From: an uncultured Candidatus Saccharibacteria bacterium
Lineage (GTDB): Bacteria > Patescibacteriota > Saccharimonadia > Saccharimonadales > SZUA-47
NCBI GenBank assembly: GCA_964419675.1
Contig: CAYQPN010000004.1
Location: 11,001 to 75,000 of the forward strand
Length of the DNA stretch: 64,000 bases
Reading direction: 5' to 3'
A model generated the notes under the pieces. The model was not told the origin of the DNA and ran no database searches. It worked only from the letters and a program-made list of their open reading frames with translations. Shown piece by piece: positions 3,641-61,938 of this stretch (its first letter is position 1; every line of letters begins with the position of its first letter). The position numbers and the translations under genes are program-made.

Positions 3641-4266
3641 TTAATTTGCTCCCAACTGACGAACTCGTAGAACGAAAGTATGGTAGACGCAACAAGATTC
3701 TGGCAAGTTACGTAGCTTACTTGTTAGTAACTGCTGGACTTGTTGCGTCAATACTTGTTGGCAGTTTACGTTTTGTTGGTTCTAACGAGCCACTTCTCCG
3801 TAAACAGCTGGAAGAGAATGAAGCGCAGTCAGCTATATTGGAGTCAAAAGTAGCGGAGTTGGGCAAAGTCACGCAACGCCTAACAACCACAAACAAACTC
3901 TTCGATAGTGCTATATCTTTCTCAGAACTTATCCCAAAGATAGGAAGTTTGTTGCCTCAAGGATCTATTCTTAACGGTTTATCATTAAATGGAGGCAAGA
4001 CTGATCCTTTATCACTTGAAGTTGATTTATACAGTGCTGATCTAGCTCCAATATTGCAAAGTAATTTAATAAACTCTGACCTGTTTGAAGCAGCTGACAT
4101 CAACTCAATTACGAGCATTGCTGACGATACTAGCGTTTATAAGTTTTCAGCATCTGTTTCAGCTAGTTTTACTGGATCAGCCGATGCAAAAAAGAAAATA
4201 GCAGCAGCAGCCGCAGCAGCAGAAGCAGCGGCAAAAGCAAAAACAGATTCAGGGAGCACTAAGTAA
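3637..4266 (+). CDS. pilN: PilN-like pilus assembly protein
   Basis: It has the MINLLP N-terminus and a single TM followed by a coiled coil. The start overlaps the pilM stop. Confidence 0.7.
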   Translation: MINLLPTDELVERKYGRRNKILASYVAYLLVTAGLVASILVGSLRFVGSNEPLLRKQLEENEAQSAILESKVAELGKVTQRLTTTNKLFDSAISFSELIPKIGSLLPQGSILNGLSLNGGKTDPLSLEVDLYSADLAPILQSNLINSDLFEAADINSITSIADDTSVYKFSASVSASFTGSADAKKKIAAAAAAAEAAAKAKTDSGSTK

Positions 4267-7392: not shown

Positions 7393-7872
7393 TTATAGTT
7401 TAGCGCTAACCCCGTTAGCAAGATGTGTAAGTGCGCAGGCCAGAGCGTCGGCACAATCGTCTGGCTTTGGTTTAGTTTTAAGTCCTAATTGCACCCGTAC
7501 CATTTCTTGAATTTGCGCCTTTGTGGCTCGCCCGTAACCTGTCATTGCCATTTTAATTTGCAGGGGGGTGTATTCATAAATCGGTATGCCAGCCTCAGCA
7601 AGAGCCAGCAAAATTACTCCGCGGGCCTGTGATACCTTCATGGCAGTAGTCACGTTTTGAGCAAAAAACAGTTTCTCGACAGACGCTGCATCGGGTTTAA
7701 ATTCTTGAACCAGCTCTTTCATAGATTCATATAGATCAACCAAGCGACTTGCATCATCATCACCAATAATTGTCCTAATTACTCCTGCGTCGAGTAGTTT
7801 AGGATTAGATTTTTTCTCTATCAACCCAAAACCAATTATTCCTGAGCCTGGATCAATGCCTAGTATTTTCAT
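7393..7872 (-). CDS. ruvC: Crossover junction endodeoxyribonuclease RuvC
   Basis: It starts MKILGIDPG, has RNase H-like fold motifs and is the length of RuvC. Confidence 0.93.
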   Translation of the reverse strand: MKILGIDPGSGIIGFGLIEKKSNPKLLDAGVIRTIIGDDDASRLVDLYESMKELVQEFKPDAASVEKLFFAQNVTTAMKVSQARGVILLALAEAGIPIYEYTPLQIKMAMTGYGRATKAQIQEMVRVQLGLKTKPKPDDCADALACALTHLANGVSAKL

Positions 7873-8516
7873 TTGTGTAACCGTAAATCGTTCCCATTTA
7901 TAATTATCACTTGTCCGTCGTTTAGCTTTTTGTATTCCTGGTTATGGAGTTTAAAGTATGCCTCAGCTCTTTTAGCGGAATCCACGAACCAGTCCATATT
8001 ACAGTGGGGTATTACTATAAAGTCTACTAAGCCAAGCCCACTCCAGATTGTCTTTTTTATAGGATAGCTTGCGGGTACAATACTTGGCGAAGGTCGATCA
8101 CCATATTGAATACCTTTCAATGAATCTGCTACGATACAGGCTCCGGCACTCCAGCCACCATATGCTATTTTATCTTGATCCAACAATTCTTTAAGTATTT
8201 TATCTAGGCCGGAAGCATGCATCGCTCTGCGAAGTATGAATGTATTACCTCCTGCGCACCAAACTGAGCCAAATGATGCAATTTTAATTTTCAACTTGTT
8301 ACTTTTGCCAAAATAATTGCGTAAATCTATCTCTTCAAATTTAAAGCCGAAATTCTCAAACATCTGCTTTTTCGAAGCTGTACTGAAATTTCTCTCTTCT
8401 GAGGTTTTATCATCTTGAGCATTTTTTATAAATGCCGCATTATTATTTTCCCCAACTAGTTCACGTGCTAGCTTGCCATATTTTCCAAAATCTTGAGATG
8501 ACAAAAAAAGTCTCAT
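7869..8516 (-). CDS. Peptidase S51 family (dipeptidase E-like, class I glutamine amidotransferase-like fold)
   Basis: GGNTFILRRAM and GGWSAGACI motifs are typical of the S51 family. A paralogue lies at 39385-40041. Confidence 0.75.
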   Translation of the reverse strand: MRLFLSSQDFGKYGKLARELVGENNNAAFIKNAQDDKTSEERNFSTASKKQMFENFGFKFEEIDLRNYFGKSNKLKIKIASFGSVWCAGGNTFILRRAMHASGLDKILKELLDQDKIAYGGWSAGACIVADSLKGIQYGDRPSPSIVPASYPIKKTIWSGLGLVDFIVIPHCNMDWFVDSAKRAEAYFKLHNQEYKKLNDGQVIIINGNDLRLHK

Positions 8517-10154: not shown

Positions 10155-10309
10155 TGGAGGGCCCGATGAGACTCGGTCACCTCTGGCGACCCCTAAACTA
10201 CATTTTTCAAAACAAGTTTTGAAGAGTAGGTTTCCTTGCGAAATGCCACCGGCATTTCTCACTCATGACACCGAATGTGTCGTGACTTGAATCTCATCTG
10301 GAGTCGACC
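10155..10309 (-). repeat. Family A element, copy 1: 5'-truncated tRNA-Lys copy with an 85-nt three-hairpin module in its T-loop
   Basis: Segment 10155-10175 equals the tRNA-Lys 3' 21 nt (21/21). Segment 10261-10272 equals the tRNA variable loop plus 5' T-stem (12/12). The module at 10176-10260 is shared with the copies at 31837, 38975 and 39228. Confidence 0.75.
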
Positions 10310-10337
10310 AAAAATAAAACCGTCCTTTTGGGACGGT
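10310..10337 (-). terminator. Rho-independent terminator directly after tRNA-Lys
   Basis: The stem ACCGTCC/GGACGGT is followed on the minus strand by TTTTATTTTT. Confidence 0.75.
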
Positions 10338-24048: not shown

Positions 24049-24080
24049 TAAACTTATTGTACCAGTAAAATATCTGTAAG

Positions 24081-24131
24081 TTAGTCACGTTTTAGTAAAA
24101 CGGTGAAGGCCTCGGCCGGTAGGTCTACTTT
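24081..24131 (-). repeat. Displaced duplicate of the lepA 3' end (last 16 codons plus stop)
   Basis: It matches 24218-24268 at 50 of 51 positions. The single difference is a synonymous Thr codon change (ACC versus ACA). Confidence 0.9.
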
Positions 24132-24217
24132 ATCAGAGTATAAGACACCCCTTCGGGGTTTCTCATCACGCAGGCCACGGAATAAATCCGATGGTCTGGC
24201 TGCTCTTCCCGAAGCAG
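24132..24217 (-). repeat. Family B element, minus orientation, between the two lepA 3'-end copies
   Basis: The minus strand reads GGGAAGAGCAGCCAGACCATCGGATTTATTCCGTGGCCTGCGTGATGAGAAACCCCGAAGGGGTGTC. Confidence 0.75.
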
Positions 24218-25999
24218 TTAGTCACGTTTTAGTAAAACTGTGAAGGCCTCGGCCGGTAGGTCTACTTTGCCGAACTTTTTAAGGCGTTCTTTACCTTTTT
24301 TCTGCTTGGCTAGAACTTTCTTTTTTCTAGATACATCACCACCGTATAACCCAGTTGTTACGTCTTTTCTGAAGGCGCTAATGTCCTCTCGTGCAATAAA
24401 TTTACCGCCCAATGCGGCCTGAACCGCCACTTGAAAGTTTTGACGCGGTATAACGTCTTTCAGCTTCTTGACAACGTCTCGTCCAACGCTGTTGGCTTCA
24501 CTTCTATGAACCATAATACTTAGAGCATCAACTCTGTCGCCCGCAACGTAAAAATCAAGCTTTACCAAATCTTCTACTCTATAGTTATCTAGCTCGTAAT
24601 TAAAACTGCCATATCCGCTTGTTAGACTTTTTAATTGGTCATAAAAATCTGTTAACAGGTTGGCAAGCGGTGCCTCAAAAGTAACAAGCGCCAATTGTGC
24701 ATCTACATAGCCTAGATTTTTTTGTAAACCTCGTTTACTAACAATCAACTGAATAATAGCCCCAACATATTCTTTGGGACAAACCACTTCACCTTTAATC
24801 CATGGTTCACGAATCTCGGTAATTTTACTTACGTCCGGCAAACTACTGGCTGATTTAACATCAATTTCTTCTCCGCTACTCAGTAAAACTTCATAGTCCG
24901 TGCTGGGATTTGTTACTACTAAATCAAGGTTATACTCTCGCTCTAAACGCTCTTTAATAATGTCCATGTGGAGCAACCCTAAGAAACCAATGCGAATCCC
25001 GAAGCCTAAAACTGGTGAATTTTCTGGCTCGTATTGCAAAGCAGAATCACTCAAACTTAATCTGTCAATCGCCTCTTTAAGGGCGATGTAATTTTCGTTA
25101 CTATCTGGGAAAAACCCGGCATACACAAAAGGCTTAACGATTTTATAGCCGGCAAGAGCTTCAACAGCAGGAGCGTTGGTTAGAGTTACGGTGTCACCAA
25201 CTCGAGCTTCGCGGGTGCTTTTCAAGTTAGTTACAATATATCCAATCTCCCCTGTTTTTAAGTCTGTATTGGCCTTCATATCTGGGCGTAATGCACCCAC
25301 TTCTAGCGCAAGTCCATTAGTGTTGGAGCTAATCATATGAATTCCGGCGCCTTTTTGGACATGACCGTCAATGATACGCACGTAGAGAATAACTCCACGG
25401 TAATCGTCATAGTAGCTATCAAAAATTAGACCTCTGGTTGGCTTGTCACTAGTACCTTTTGGCTCTGGTACAAGTGCAATTACACTGTCCAGAACTGATT
25501 CAATACCAATCCCGGTTTTTGCACTTATCAGCAATATATCTTCTTTTTTGCATCCAAGCAGGGAAATAACTTCTGAACTTACACGCTCTACGTCAGCGGC
25601 CGGCAAATCGATTTTATTTAGAACAGGAATAATCGTTAAGTCGGCTGCAATTGCTAGATAAACATTGGCTAGAGTCTGCGCCTGAATGCCTTGAGAAGCA
25701 TCAACAACTAAAATTGCGCCCTCGCAAGCCTCAAGGCTTCGCGATACTTCATAGCTGAAATCCACATGACCTGGAGTATCAATCAAGTTCAGCTCGTAGC
25801 CTTTATAGTCCATTCTTACCGGCGCTAGTTTAATGGTAATTCCCTTTTCGCGCTCCAAATCCATTTTGTCTAGCATCTGTGCTTTCATATCGCGCTTTTG
25901 CACAGTTCCGGTAATTTCCAATAGCCGGTCAGCCAAAGTAGACTTACCATGATCGATATGCGCAATAATGCAGAAATTTCTAATTTTTTCTTGACTCAT
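24218..25999 (-). CDS. lepA: Translation elongation factor 4 (LepA)
   Basis: It has the GTPase motifs IIAHIDHGKST and DTPGHVDF and the LepA-specific C-terminal domain. Confidence 0.97.
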   Translation of the reverse strand: MSQEKIRNFCIIAHIDHGKSTLADRLLEITGTVQKRDMKAQMLDKMDLEREKGITIKLAPVRMDYKGYELNLIDTPGHVDFSYEVSRSLEACEGAILVVDASQGIQAQTLANVYLAIAADLTIIPVLNKIDLPAADVERVSSEVISLLGCKKEDILLISAKTGIGIESVLDSVIALVPEPKGTSDKPTRGLIFDSYYDDYRGVILYVRIIDGHVQKGAGIHMISSNTNGLALEVGALRPDMKANTDLKTGEIGYIVTNLKSTREARVGDTVTLTNAPAVEALAGYKIVKPFVYAGFFPDSNENYIALKEAIDRLSLSDSALQYEPENSPVLGFGIRIGFLGLLHMDIIKERLEREYNLDLVVTNPSTDYEVLLSSGEEIDVKSASSLPDVSKITEIREPWIKGEVVCPKEYVGAIIQLIVSKRGLQKNLGYVDAQLALVTFEAPLANLLTDFYDQLKSLTSGYGSFNYELDNYRVEDLVKLDFYVAGDRVDALSIMVHRSEANSVGRDVVKKLKDVIPRQNFQVAVQAALGGKFIAREDISAFRKDVTTGLYGGDVSRKKKVLAKQKKGKERLKKFGKVDLPAEAFTVLLKRD

Positions 26000-31996: not shown

Positions 31997-32073
31997 TGGT
32001 AGCGGGAGTGAGATTTGAACTCGCGACCTCAGGCTTATGAGTCCTGCGCTCTAACCAACTGAGCTATCCCGCC
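31997..32073 (-). tRNA. tRNA-Met (anticodon CAU, elongator-like), CCA encoded
   Basis: It forms a cloverleaf with the CTCATAA anticodon loop, and its D-arm is identical to typical elongator Met. It has a G1-U72 pair and single mismatches in the anticodon and T stems. A hairpin terminator lies at 31963-31988. Confidence 0.8.
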
Positions 32074-38779: not shown

Positions 38780-38808
38780 TTGACTACAGCGATACTGCCT
38801 GATATAAT
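38780..38808 (+). promoter_or_regulatory. Near-consensus sigma70 promoter for tRNA-fMet
   Basis: TTGACT (38780-38785), a 17-nt spacer and TATAAT (38803-38808) end 13 nt before the tRNA 5' end. Confidence 0.7.
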
Positions 38809-38821
38809 CATCAGGCTGTAT

Positions 38822-38896
38822 CGCGGGATGGAGCAGCGGCAGCTCGCTTGGCTCATAACCAAGAGGTCCCAGGTTCGAGTCCTGGTCCCGCTACCA
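38822..38896 (+). tRNA. Initiator tRNA-fMet (anticodon CAU), CCA encoded
   Basis: CGCGGGATGGAGCAGC...CTCATAA closely parallels E. coli tRNA-fMet. It has the C1-U72 mismatch characteristic of bacterial initiators. A hairpin terminator lies at 38905-38930. Confidence 0.9.
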
Positions 38897-38930
38897 AGAA
38901 TAAAGTCTCACATTTATGTGGGGCTTTTTT

Positions 38931-39083
38931 CTTGGTAATGTGCCAAGGCTAGAGCCTGGCCTAAGGTCACAGGTGAAAAGTGCCATTCGGCACTTTGCAA
39001 GAGAATCTTTCAGTATACAAACTTGTTTGTAACTTGAAAGTTCTGGGCCCGCGGCACGTGGGCGAGTCCTGGTCCCGCTACCA
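38931..39083 (+). repeat. Family A element, copy 3: 5'-truncated tRNA-fMet-like copy with an 88-nt module in its T-loop
   Basis: Segment 39063-39083 equals the tRNA 3' 21 nt (21/21). Segment 38964-38974 equals the tRNA variable loop plus 5' T-stem (10/11). The module is at 38975-39062. A pseudo-anticodon arm, AGGCT-AGAGCCT-GGCCT, is at 38946-38962, and its own terminator is at 39094-39121. Confidence 0.75.
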
Positions 39084-39206
39084 AAATAAATAACTCACCC
39101 TCGCGGTGGGTTTTTTATTTTAATATCGAGAGTCATGACTCGAACCTGACAGCCCGCTCTAGGCGGGCAGGTTCGCTAATTCCCCGTCCACCAATGGTGG
39201 ACAAAC

Positions 39207-39326
39207 TGGCGAATTACCATCTTTCCTGGCCACATTCTGCGGCCCCGAAACTTCATGACAGAAAACTAGTTTTCTTCAGAAGATTTCCTTGCAATGAGCC
39301 ACTGGCTCATTTCACCCGCTACCAAG
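39207..39326 (-). repeat. Family A module, copy 4 (inverted relative to copy 3), flanked by a third partial copy of the tRNA-fMet 3' end
   Basis: The module at 39228-39314 aligns over its full length with the other copies and has covarying stems. CCCGCTACCAAG (39315-39326) equals tRNA-fMet 38887-38898. Confidence 0.65.
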
Positions 39327-39384
39327 CATAAGAAATACAGCTTCCGAAAGGAAGTCATTTCTATTTGTTTGATATGATGAGGGT

Positions 39385-40041
39385 ATGAAATTGCTGCTTT
39401 GCTCAGAAGGTTTTCACACACCGAATACCATCCAAGCTTGTGTAGATCTGGTTGGTAAGCCAAAAGACAAGATTGCAATTGCCGTCATTAATGAAGCATT
39501 TGCTCCTGAAGAAAATGATAAGCGCTGGGTGTTGCATAATTTAAACTGTGTGGCAGATAATTTTCCTGGTCCATTCGACATTGTTGATTTACTTGCATTA
39601 CCGATTGACAAAGTCGAAACTCGCATAGAAAAGTGCGATGTGATTTTTGTGGTTGGAGGAAATACAGATTATCTAATGCATGTTTACAAGAAGACTGGTT
39701 TTGATAATTTACTGTTAAAGCTACTTGAAACAAAAGTATATGTTGGTAGTAGTGCGGGATCAGTAGTCATGGGGAAAAGACCTTCTAGTAAGAAATACTT
39801 GGAAGCCTTCGGTAAGGAAAAAGATTTCGGAATAACTAGCTACATGGAACTAGTAGATTTAGCTATTCGTCCACACATGGACTCAACGGAACAGCCAAAA
39901 AGACGAGAACATGTCCTCCGAGAATCATCACAGGGTCTAGATTTTCCTGTGTATGGTTTGCGAGATGACTCAGCAATCATCGTTAATGACGATAAACTAG
40001 ATCTTATAGGTAGCGAACCCTACATCATTAATCCTATCTAA
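39385..40041 (+). CDS. Peptidase S51 family (dipeptidase E-like), second paralogue
   Basis: It has GGNTDYLMHV and GSSAGSVVMG motifs and a GAGGG Shine-Dalgarno before the ATG. Confidence 0.75.
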   Translation: MKLLLCSEGFHTPNTIQACVDLVGKPKDKIAIAVINEAFAPEENDKRWVLHNLNCVADNFPGPFDIVDLLALPIDKVETRIEKCDVIFVVGGNTDYLMHVYKKTGFDNLLLKLLETKVYVGSSAGSVVMGKRPSSKKYLEAFGKEKDFGITSYMELVDLAIRPHMDSTEQPKRREHVLRESSQGLDFPVYGLRDDSAIIVNDDKLDLIGSEPYIINPI

Positions 40042-43720: not shown

Positions 43721-43768
43721 ATCTCTATAATTTTACACTAAAAAACCGACATTAGGTCGGTTCTTAAA

Positions 43769-43896
43769 TGGTGGGGGTACCTGGACTTGTCATAATTTGC
43801 TCGCTCGAGAGCGCAAGCGCATCTCGCTCAGCCAAGCACAGAAAACTCATCCGCCTTGGGCGGATTCGACCCAAGGGTTCAAATCTTCTACAACCT
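43769..43896 (-). repeat. Divergent family A-like element downstream of tRNA-Ile2, ending in a duplicate of the tRNA 3' 21 nt
   Basis: Segment 43769-43789 equals 43934-43954 (21/21, C56 to CCA). The interior has a GAGA-GCG-CTTG-CGC-TCTC hairpin and a T-arm-like CCTTGGG-TCGAATCCG-CCCAAGG. Its own terminator is at 43739-43762. Confidence 0.6.
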
Positions 43897-43933
43897 CAAA
43901 TAAAAACAAACTCCAGTGGAGCTTGTTTTTATT

Positions 43934-44628
43934 TGGTGGGGGTACCTGGACTTGAACCAGGGACCAATCGGTTATGCGTACCACTACAGCTTTTGCTGCC
44001 TCTTTCGTGTTTGTGGTCTGGACTGTCTCTTTATCCGCGTATTTGCGGATACTTGCCATACAGTCTCTACACCTTACCAGCTTTTTTATAAACTGGGCTT
44101 GGCTCGGGATTACCACTCAGCCAGTTGGCGGATAGAGGCTTCCCCGAATTTGACAAGATATACTTACTGGTTACCCATGTAAGCAGCCCTTTAACTTTTT
44201 GACTTATCTATAGTATACTTCGGTTATGAAGAACAGGTCTAACTGTGCCGTGTGTAATAAAATTCTATCCGGCAAACAAACATTGTTCTGCTCCGTGAAA
44301 TGTAAAAATACACAGCACCAATCATACCCTGCTCAAAAAAAGCGCGGATTAAATCGAAAACTCTATTTTATAAGAGAGTTAGGAGGAAAATGTTCTATCT
44401 GCGGATATGCAAAAAATATTTCTGCACTGGCATTTCACCACATACACGGTAAAGAATTTCAACTAGATGTTCGTGCACTATCAAACCGTAAAATTGAACC
44501 TATACTTGAAGAGGTCGCAAAATGTAAGTTATTGTGCAATAACTGCCACGCTGAAATTCATAACCCAAATCTAGACTTAGCCAAATTGTTAATTGAGCCG
44601 ACTGCTCTAACCACTGAGCTATACCCCC
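43934..44628 (-). tRNA. tRNA-Ile2-like (anticodon CAU) interrupted by a group I intron in the anticodon loop
   Basis: Exon 1 (44628-44596) reads GGGGGTATAGCTCAGTGGTTAGAGCAGTCGGCT. Exon 2 (43976-43934) reads CATAACCGATTGGTCCCTGGTTCAAGTCCAGGTACCCCCACCA. Joined, they form a perfect cloverleaf closely resembling E. coli tRNA-Ile2. Confidence 0.88.
43977..44595 (-). mobile_element. Group I intron (IC3-like core) in the tRNA anticodon loop
   Basis: The minus strand contains GTCAAATTCGGGGAAGCC, CCCGAGCCAAGCCC and AAGGTGTAGAGACTGTATGGCA. These match P3/P7-region strings of the Azoarcus tRNA-Ile intron as I recall it. The 5' exon ends in U and the intron ends in G. Confidence 0.8.
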
Positions 44629-56025: not shown

Positions 56026-56065
56026 TATACACATATTATACGCTATAGCGTATAATATGTGTATA
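56026..56065. repeat. Perfect 40-bp palindrome (copy 2 of 4), overlapping the divergent promoter region
   Basis: It reads TATACACATATTATACGCTA|TAGCGTATAATATGTGTATA. TATAAT at 56051-56056 lies 33 nt upstream of the 56090 ATG, and a mirrored TATAAT on the minus strand faces the mazG-like operon. Confidence 0.95.
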
Positions 56066-56089: not shown

Positions 56090-56686
56090 ATGAAAAACGT
56101 CAATAAACTAAAGCTAAGAAAAGTTAAATCTGTAACCAACCCTTTAATGAAGGGCTTACTAAAAACCGCTCTCGCAACCGGACTTATCGGCGTAGTTATA
56201 ACTGCTCCAAATTCATTGCAAGCGTTGGATTTACTAGTAAAGAAATTGGACAAAACAAAAAAGCGCGGTAAAAGATTTAACGAGTATGCCCGGCGCAGTG
56301 GCTATTTTGAAGTAGAGTCCTGCGGTAAAGACCGATACGCGATAAAGCTCAGTTCTAAAGGGCAAAAAGCCGCTCAAAACGTGTTATTTGATGATTTTAC
56401 GCTGACAAAAGCTCAAAAATGGGATGGTAGTTGGCACATTTTAATGTTCGATATTGGGGAAAAGCACAAATATTTAAGAGATATGTTAAGCAACAAAGTT
56501 ACTGATCTTGGAATGCTACCTCTACAAAACAGCGTCTACGTTTATCCTTACGCATTCGACGATTTTATTGAGAATTTGCATATTGTCTACCCTCAAGCAA
56601 TGCAGTATGTTATGTCTGCCAGGGCAACACAAATTGACGGCGAGAAACAGCTGATAGAAAAATTTAGGCTTGCCAAAGTAATCTAA
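56090..56686 (+). CDS. PaaX-like / Cas2-fold (VapD-like) domain protein with N-terminal hydrophobic segment
   Basis: WDGSWHILMFDIGEKHKYLRDMLSNKVTDLGMLPLQNSVYVYPY matches the W.G.W.h..FDI.E..R..R..L...L...G...LQ.SV.V.P motif of PaaX middle and Cas2-like domains. Confidence 0.6.
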   Translation: MKNVNKLKLRKVKSVTNPLMKGLLKTALATGLIGVVITAPNSLQALDLLVKKLDKTKKRGKRFNEYARRSGYFEVESCGKDRYAIKLSSKGQKAAQNVLFDDFTLTKAQKWDGSWHILMFDIGEKHKYLRDMLSNKVTDLGMLPLQNSVYVYPYAFDDFIENLHIVYPQAMQYVMSARATQIDGEKQLIEKFRLAKVI

Positions 56687-56710
56687 AGCTCTTTCTTAAC
56701 GATCCACTAA

Positions 56711-56746
56711 TACACATATTATACGCTATAGCGTATAATATGTGTA
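56711..56746. repeat. Perfect 36-bp palindrome (copy 3 of 4) between convergent genes
   Basis: It reads TACACATATTATACGCTA|TAGCGTATAATATGTGTA, starting 25 nt after the stop of 56090-56686. Confidence 0.95.
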
Positions 56747-61703: not shown

Positions 61704-61902
61704 GATTCTATCCTCAAATTTAGTTTGTAATTGTTCGGCTTTTTCGACGGGTCTTTTGCCAAGTAAGAAGTAGCTCGCCAAAAACTACCGGCGGACCCGA
61801 CTATTCATATTATTTTGCACGACAATTGTTTTCACTCCTGTTATTGTACCATCAACCGGATATAACTAGTGCAAATTTCAGCATTCTAGCATAAGAACTA
61901 CC

Positions 61903-61938
61903 TACACATATTATACGCTATAGCGTATAATATGTGTA
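61903..61938. repeat. Perfect 36-bp palindrome (copy 4 of 4) between the CNNM-family gene stop and aspS
   Basis: It reads TACACATATTATACGCTA|TAGCGTATAATATGTGTA. Confidence 0.95.

Follow-up and report, generated by a model that had tools for sequence, protein, structure and literature searches.

The T-loop and anticodon-loop positions of tRNA genes are the classic crossover sites of tRNA-targeting integrases. In the arrays formed by integrative elements (with attL and attR ends and accretion of cis-mobilizable elements), the proximal tRNA is regenerated and the displaced end is found distally, each block is enclosed by direct repeats of the tRNA 3' segment, and the number and order of the blocks differ between relatives. 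Archaeal introns occupy noncanonical D- and T-loop positions of tRNA genes, and mobile introns use guide pairing, through the internal guide sequence in group I and the EBS/IBS pairs in group II. MITEs and the REP/REPIN sequences are small structured intergenic repeats of bacteria. Group I introns are known from tRNA genes of Patescibacteria (PMC13011429), and tRNA gene fragments arising from the integration of elements are well documented (PMC9897764).

The locus described here, at the tRNA-fMet gene of a Saccharibacteria chromosome, is like the integrative-element arrays in that bounding tRNA repeats, a distal ancestral tRNA end with its trailer, and variable block content and order were found. 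It is unlike them in several other respects. No integrase was found in the window (the whole stretch of 64,000 nucleotides, or 64 kb, that was analyzed), and most of the blocks are only 140 to 190 nt long and without genes. There is also a regular mirror class of units that holds the tRNA 5' part with a promoter, and a structured module lies inside a tRNA loop, often with an antisense arm.

The window is part of the core chromosome, with type IV pilus genes, ruvABC, dnaK/dnaJ/grpE/hrcA, lepA, ftsH, tilS, and genes for two-component systems. Both its proteins and the module have their nearest relatives in Saccharibacteria/Patescibacteria assemblies; Saccharibacteria genomes are among the smallest and most streamlined of bacteria. 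ARAGORN and Rfam detected tRNA-Lys (10346-10422, minus strand), tRNA-Met (31997-32073, minus), and an initiator-like tRNA-Met (38822-38896, plus), and Rfam detected one group I intron. A 37-nt near-perfect palindrome, ACACATATTATACGCTATAGCGTATAATATGTGT, is present in four copies (11215-11251, 56027-56063, 56710-56746, and 61902-61938). Two of them flank a gene for a PaaX-like regulator (56090-56686), and the palindrome may therefore be an operator. A 53-nt direct repeat with 98% identity (24079-24131 and 24216-24268, 137 nt apart) lies beside lepA.

An initial annotation, made by a model that saw only the DNA letters and their open reading frames, had described the region 39122-39384 as a mosaic of tRNA debris downstream of tRNA-fMet, produced by repeated, nested insertions at one tRNA 3' end. 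All of the features that it listed were found in place, and several of them are read differently below.

Architecture of the array at tRNA-fMet

The array is composed of the following features, given in window coordinates; L numbers denote loci from other genomes.

38780-38808, plus: promoter-like site of the tRNA gene, TTGACT-17-TATAAT, TG-extended, matching 11 of 12 consensus positions
38822-38896, plus: tRNA-Met (CAT), intact and initiator-like, with a 1-72 acceptor mismatch (60.8 bits); it anchors the array
38902-38927, plus: terminator T1, which arrived with block 1
38930-39084, plus: block 1 (copy 3 of the initial annotation), a partial copy of tRNA-fMet that starts at the anticodon arm
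38974-39063, plus: forward family A module in the T-loop of block 1 (92.4 bits), then a 21/21 copy of tRNA positions 56-76
39092-39112, plus: terminator T2
39128-39148, plus: antisense copy of the fMet T arm (14/15), which is the leader arm of block 2; an arm common to most downstream units
39152-39168, plus: inner hairpin GCCCGC-TCTAG-GCGGGC within the loop of an outer stem, CGAACCTG/CAGGTTCG
39168-39175, plus: 5' strand of the sense T-stem and start of the T-loop of block 2, CAGGTTCG
39176-39220, plus: module C, a small hairpin inserted behind GGTTCG, CTAATTCCCC...GGCGAATTACCAT; its tip (39186-39202) is variable
39221-39227, plus: CTTTCCT, a remnant of tRNA positions ~58-63 (..GTCCT), T-stem 3' strand, abutting the reverse module (ATATTTCCTGCCCCCGC in L126 and GATGTCCT in L059)
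39228-39314, minus: intact, reversed family A module, an 87-nt insertion that separates the T-stem 3' strand of block 2 from its acceptor strand (108.4 bits)
39315-39340, plus: ancestral tRNA 3' end (positions 67-76) and original trailer, AAGCATAAGAAATACAG; the trailer is homologous to the post-tRNA trailer of L131 and to the last trailer of L126
39340-39355, plus: weak terminator-like hairpin T3 (CTTCC-GAAA-GGAAG at 39341-39354)

The fMet 3' end, CCCGCTACCA(A), occurs three times in the window, each time followed by a terminator-like hairpin. The last copy had been described as resembling the tRNA end and its downstream sequence. This proved correct, since CCCGCTACCAAGCATAA (39315-39331) matches the tRNA-fMet end and trailer (38887-38903) at 16 of 17 positions. 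The hairpin CTTCC-GAAA-GGAAG that had been said to follow it was read at 39341-39354, and the arm reported as GCCCGC-CTAGA-GCGGGC is present at 39152-39168. The inverted module, this 3' end, and the T-loop remnant are well beyond chance. The region also folds far better than shuffled sequence: folding of 39121-39227 on the plus strand gave a z score of -4.2, and folding of 39121-39350 on the minus strand gave likewise -4.2.

Two short sequences had been taken for CCA-terminated tRNA ends. One is TGGCGAATTACC (39207-39218), read on the minus strand, and the other is the palindrome GTCCACCA-A-TGGTGGAC (39186-39202). Both are present, the latter as a perfect 8+1+8 palindrome; by estimate, about one palindrome with 8-bp arms is expected per 64 kb for a given loop length (64000/4^8). 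The flanks of module C are identical in the window and L126 (17/17 and 13/13), and module C of L131 has minor differences. The tip, which is GTCCACCA-A-TGGTGGAC in the window, reads GTCAGC-TTT-GCTGAC in L126 and GTCAGC-CCA-GCTGAC in L131. Because the tip varies among these homologues, the two sequences are not tRNA ends; they are the stem and the variable tip of module C. The T-loop motif on the minus strand (CAGGTTCGAGTCaTG, 39134-39148) does share 14 of 15 positions with the fMet T arm, but it does not mark a separate inverted tRNA. It is the antisense arm found in most downstream units.

Blocks at orthologous tRNA-fMet loci vary in presence and order

The initial annotation had proposed comparing the locus with related strains. 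We ran this comparison on a handful of orthologous loci with hsp20 and tRNA-fMet (L126, L127, L131, L059, and the window), of which L126, L127, and L131 were obtained with Hsp20 homologues as the synteny anchor. Peptidase S51 was dropped as an anchor because its neighbors differ in every genome examined. The window holds two peptidase S51 paralogues, at 7869-8516 (minus) and 39385-40041 (plus); the differing neighbors are those of the second.

All five differed in block content or order, and the reverse module was present at some loci and absent from others. The tRNA of L126 is followed by one 141-nt block between two ..CCCGCTACCA copies, without a family A module, and after this block come a second ..CCTGCCCCCGCTACCA, the trailer AGTAAGAATTATAGATAGAG.., and a pilin-like gene. 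At L131, the trailer AGTAAGAATTATAGATAGAG.. and the pilin-like gene come directly after the tRNA, followed by a degenerate tRNA end and T1; farther on come the small block known from L126, which here contains a family A module in reverse, and one more tRNA end. Therefore, the gene block and the small block stand in opposite orders in L126 and L131. L127 has two small blocks, a different pair. The window and L059 also have two small blocks each, and the order in L059 is that of the window: tRNA-fMet, the block with the forward module, the second block, and the reverse module beside TTCTTGGTAGCGGG. The last trailer of L126 equals the trailer directly after the tRNA in L131, and the last trailer of the window is homologous. 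The layouts of L126, L131, and L127 thus show tRNA 3' end copies at the borders of complete blocks, with the original trailer in a distal position. Blocks stack at the tRNA 3' part, and their presence and order vary between relatives. This difference in block content and order among orthologous loci supports the earlier proposal of repeated, nested insertions at one tRNA 3' end.

The pilin-like gene of L126 and L131 encodes about 235 amino acids, with an N-terminal KGFTLVE motif. It acts like a cassette, with copies of the tRNA-fMet end as its borders, and its position relative to the small unit is reversed between the two loci.

The alignment of filled and empty sites shows the reverse family A module as an apparently separate, discrete insertion. 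The site reads TTTCCT[87 nt]CCCGC when filled and TTTCCT[GCC]CCCGC when empty, in L126. With longer flanks, ..ACCATCTTTCCT[87 nt]CCCGCTACC in the window corresponds to ..ACCATATTTCCT[GCC]CCCGCTACC in L126; at another extent, the pair is ..GGCGAATTACCATCTTTCCT[87 nt]CCCGCTACCAAG and ..GGCGAATTACCATATTTCCT[GCC]CCCGCTACCAAG. No target duplication accompanies the insertion, and 3 nt are replaced. Orthologous copies of the reverse module were found in L059 and L131, where its junction with the tRNA-fMet-like 3' end recurs. The initial annotation had suggested that one tRNA-like unit of the window lacks the module and may be an empty form. The empty form is not in the window, and the module-less state is found instead in the L126 genome, where it could be a secondary loss by gene conversion from the tRNA gene, as the arms track the tRNA. 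A scan of metagenomes for the reverse-module junction, TGGTAGCGGGTGA..GCAAG, gave an unrelated high-GC chance match as its sole match.

Conservation between the window and L059 is uneven. Identity is 93% for the tRNA and 95% for the arm beside the forward module, which follows a T/C change in the tRNA. The reverse module is 79% identical without gaps and has four compensatory pair changes in P1. Identity falls to 34% for 39121-39227 and to 25 to 63% in the spacers. L059 has kept the outer stem of the window's block 2 around a different inner hairpin.

The stacking pattern recalls the scars of classical integration. According to this explanation, the tRNA-end copies would be attL/attR scars of a tyrosine integrase, the interior a decayed element, and the module a passenger. 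Direct repeats of the tRNA 3' end do bound the blocks, one block of L131 and of L126 contains a real gene, the T-loop and anticodon-loop positions fit the classic integrase crossover sites, and tRNA fragments are a documented product of element integration, as cited above. However, a search of 61 window ORFs against Pfam gave no integrase, recombinase, transposase, or reverse transcriptase within the 64 kb, so a site-specific recombinase was found neither in the element nor nearby. Most blocks also have a fixed architecture at their small size, and the mirror units, which hold a promoter and the 5' part of the tRNA, show the same regularity as the 3' units. The position of the module is within a loop of the tRNA fragment and not between att copies, its fold is under selection (see below), and its pattern had 0 matches in 2.9 million viral contigs. 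For the last reason, a phage origin of the module was dropped as well. We regard the att-scar explanation as very unlikely. As no mobility gene was found in the window, the likeness to tandem accretion of cis-mobilizable elements, which had been suggested earlier, holds for the stacking pattern and is otherwise an analogy.

The family A module and its residence in tRNA copies

Family A is an element of about 87 nt with three hairpins. We built an alignment and a covariance model from 123 distinct copies. The covariance search of the window gave exactly four matches, the best of which was the reversed copy at 39228-39314 (E value of 1.2e-30), and the three hairpins that the initial annotation had noted in this copy are P1, P2, and P3 of the family. 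The three other copies each lie just downstream of one of the three tRNAs. In addition to the forward module of block 1, these are the following.

10175-10261, minus: family A module in the tRNA-Lys downstream unit (unit ~10155-10312), 102.8 bits
31836-31923, minus: family A module in the downstream unit of the elongator tRNA-Met, 98.4 bits

A conserved-core pattern matched the window 4 times, and 100 shuffles gave 0 matches. The pattern made from the four window copies was found at 119 loci at least (one genome per species), and the taxa among the matches listed were nearly all Saccharibacteria or other Patescibacteria. Family A is thus a phylum-wide structured family, beyond what the initial annotation could see. 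Copies were also seen in bins labeled Burkholderiaceae, Woesebacteria, and Parcubacteria (L042, L020, and L024), which reflects either a wider distribution or binning contamination.

The alignment has 32 predicted pairs in three hairpins, 24 of which show compensatory changes. The proportion of cells paired was 96.6%, compared with 77.9% in shuffles and 25 to 46% with slid partners, and the covariation was 0.508, compared with 0.158 in the control. Double-change cells numbered 693, versus 181 in shuffles, and the observed value was reached in 0 of 500 shuffles. The top mutual-information pairs were helix pairs; a pseudoknot was sought in family A by the same measure, and only the known helices were recovered. 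About 220 G-U pairs are present in the pair table, one of them invariant, whereas the A-C and C-A entries are single counts. Therefore, the sense strand is the folded strand. The fold of family A is under selection.

A search of Rfam 15 gave no family near its gathering threshold and no match to the module at E values up to 10; seven further loci gave no module match at E values up to 0.1. Full-text literature, mostly without subscription journals, contained no description of the module or of the architecture. We rate family A as lying outside the described kinds, with incomplete coverage of the literature. MITEs and REP/REPIN sequences are similar to it in being about 100 nt long, noncoding, hairpin-rich, and multicopy and in needing a mobilizing function from elsewhere. 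In contrast to them, the module has no terminal inverted repeats and no target duplication, its target is tRNA sequence, and its covariation is of the RNA type with G-U pairs. Its ends, GGTGAR.. and ..GTGRYC, are direct and not inverted, and together with the missing target-site duplication they rule out a MITE-type element. The four window copies have pairwise identities of only 58 to 80%, and each is nearer to copies in other genomes. These identities do not point to any recent copying of family A in this genome, in which it differs from an active repeat family.

We then considered where the modules lie. Among the matches listed, 88 of the 114 modules with enough flank were within 150 nt of a same-strand tRNA. 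Conversely, 89 of 140 tRNAs had a module within 150 nt and 51 had none, in a sample biased by its selection, as module matches had been used to choose the loci. The host of a module is always a truncated tRNA copy that misses one tRNA half, and an intact copy of the same tRNA adjoins it. This residence in truncated copies is strict.

The units form two mirror-image classes, with long and short tRNA arms. A downstream unit begins with the intact tRNA, a terminator, a leader, 5 to 15 nt of variable loop/T-stem 5' strand, and the module; 3' of the module are tRNA positions ~56-76 with CCA and then a second terminator. An upstream unit consists of a promoter, the tRNA from position 1 to x, the module, 7 to 12 nt of tRNA, a TATAAT box, and the intact tRNA, where x is in the D-loop, the D-stem, the anticodon loop, or the T-loop. 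Some arrangements are more complex. One pseudo-tRNA-Pro in L009 (80-299) has two family A modules, in the D arm and the T-loop. Tandem units occur in L031 (7576-7863), L072, and L080, with further copies in L073 and L096, and some tandem units are identical or nearly so. Reversed modules were found in the window, L059, L131, and L112, and one arrangement has a module on each side of a single tRNA.

Unrelated module types fill the same slot as family A in other units. We observed a module family B, with the core ..AAGG.C.CGCAG-hairpin-CGAGCATG.., after GGTTCG in downstream units of L079, L110, L085, L111, and L059 (~3690-3775). The minus strand of the window has a duplicate tRNA 3' end, AAGTCCAGGTACCCCCACCA, at 43760-43789 and 43925-43954. 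Between its copies (43760-43954) are a terminator, a piece of T-loop in antisense, and an insert of ~95 nt that does not belong to family A; here another module type occupies the slot. The parent tRNA-like gene of these copies abuts the Rfam group I intron (44004-44211 region), and ARAGORN made no tRNA call for it, even after trial excision. The sequence CATAACCGA is present on both sides of the intron.

The module is a structured insert in tRNA loops (the D-loop, the T-loop, and, in a tRNA-Pro copy, position 37/38), which is also what tRNA introns look like, and group I introns in tRNA genes are known from the phylum, with one group I intron in this window. The module could accordingly have been an intron spliced from transcripts of working tRNA genes. 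However, trial excision with 240 boundary variants per copy restored a full tRNA in only 1 of 129 cases, which rules out an intron of a working gene. The host copies are truncated pseudogenes that lack one tRNA half and give no tRNA, an intact copy of the same tRNA always adjoins, and the module, at ~87 nt, has no group I core. No module matched any Rfam intron or ribozyme model, while the group I intron of the window scores 76 bits. An intron origin is therefore extremely improbable.

Most units also have, on the short-arm side, an uninterrupted antisense copy of the tRNA segment around the insertion point. When folded to minimum free energy, the tRNA-Lys unit in the window forms a five-way junction (z = -3.3), in which both sense arms are paired to the antisense arm and from which the three hairpins of the module project. 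Changes are almost never seen in the first 7 nt of the arm beside the module. Only 7 to 10 nt of the long sense arm, beside the module, are constrained, and its distal part is either perfect (28/54) or lost. Wobble-preserving changes in the antisense arms were in weak, nonsignificant excess (55/684 versus 27/471; p = 0.16), and RNA-level selection on these arms was set aside as there was no significant enrichment. An antisense segment that pairs with both flanks across an insertion point is reminiscent of the guides of mobile introns; unlike those guides, the arm is outside the module, and no ribozyme core is recognizable. The arm may be a by-product of a fold-back duplication.

Possible origin of the units and their meaning

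We consider it reasonably probable that 39121-39355 is the older, distal block in a tandem array of gene-less miniature insertions in the 3' part of tRNA-fMet, taken together with the following mechanism. A complete block would bring a replacement tRNA 3' end, a new trailer, and a terminator, as well as a partial, often folded-back, copy of the tRNA 3' half with a structured module inside. Each new insertion would enter the working gene and displace the earlier blocks and the original 3' end downstream. The order in the window would then be the tRNA, block 1 with the forward family A module, block 2 with module C, and the ancestral 3' end with its trailer. As a later event, the 87-nt family A module would have been inserted, reversed, into block 2 between TCCT and CCCGC.

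A block may enter when the chromosome and a small DNA, circular or linear, cross over within a tRNA segment that they share; besides a tRNA fragment, this DNA would carry a module and either a terminator or a promoter. Such a crossover could be made by a recombinase acting in trans or by RecA after natural transformation or DNA uptake. The module may be the insertion agent; it would enter tRNA loops and stems on the 3' side of G-rich positions and survive only in dispensable tRNA copies. The antisense arm beside most units is left unexplained by a simple crossover model.

The main rival explanation is that family A and its siblings are vertically inherited structured RNAs with a tRNA-related function and that the flanks are their historical scaffold. 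Such RNAs would be cotranscribed with the tRNA by terminator read-through and presented on, or released from, the stalk formed by the sense and antisense arms, like the RNase III stalks of rRNA. The forward copies in the window lie between terminators and downstream of tRNA promoters. The age of the copies, evident from their 58 to 80% identity in the window and their closer relatives in other genomes, agrees with this explanation, as do the many compensatory changes that keep the fold and the reverse module being the best-conserved part of the locus between the window and one other genome. The frequency of modules near tRNAs (89 of 140 in the biased sample), the near-invariance of the 7 nt of arm beside the module, the five-way junction with paired arms, and the arm that follows the T/C change of its tRNA between the window and L059 also fit. 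However, presence and block order vary at orthologous sites, 51 of the 140 tRNAs have no module, and unrelated module types occupy the same slot. Copies are reversed in the four loci named above, and a promoter was looked for but not found for the minus-strand copy in the window locus. The modules can be nested (L009) or in tandem units, the insertion points range over the D-loop, D-stem, anticodon loop, and T-loop, and the antisense arms show no significant enrichment of wobble-preserving changes. We consider a host-function RNA possible but rather unlikely.

Beyond the stacking of miniature insertions that we favor, family A, and perhaps its siblings, might itself be a small mobile RNA-type element. 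The antisense arm would guide it to a tRNA loop; the three-hairpin domain would insert, either by a self-catalyzed, reverse-splicing-like reaction or through a lineage-specific protein; and recombination would fix the chimera beside the tRNA gene. This is a speculative possibility, and we think it distinctly unlikely.

Many tRNA genes of Saccharibacteria are flanked by conserved structured noncoding units that no annotation tool reports. They account for many of the tRNA fragments by which tRNA annotation of these genomes could be misled. Mobile modules, if that is what they are, would represent a new, gene-less route to colonize tRNA genes without killing them and would provide a record of tRNA loci as landing pads. 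If they are functional, they would constitute a large, previously undescribed RNA family with a link to tRNA expression in a phylum that is major and uncultured. Either way, the units offer a testable system, in which the 87-nt fold is defined, sites exist in both the filled and the empty state, and there are relatives in culture.
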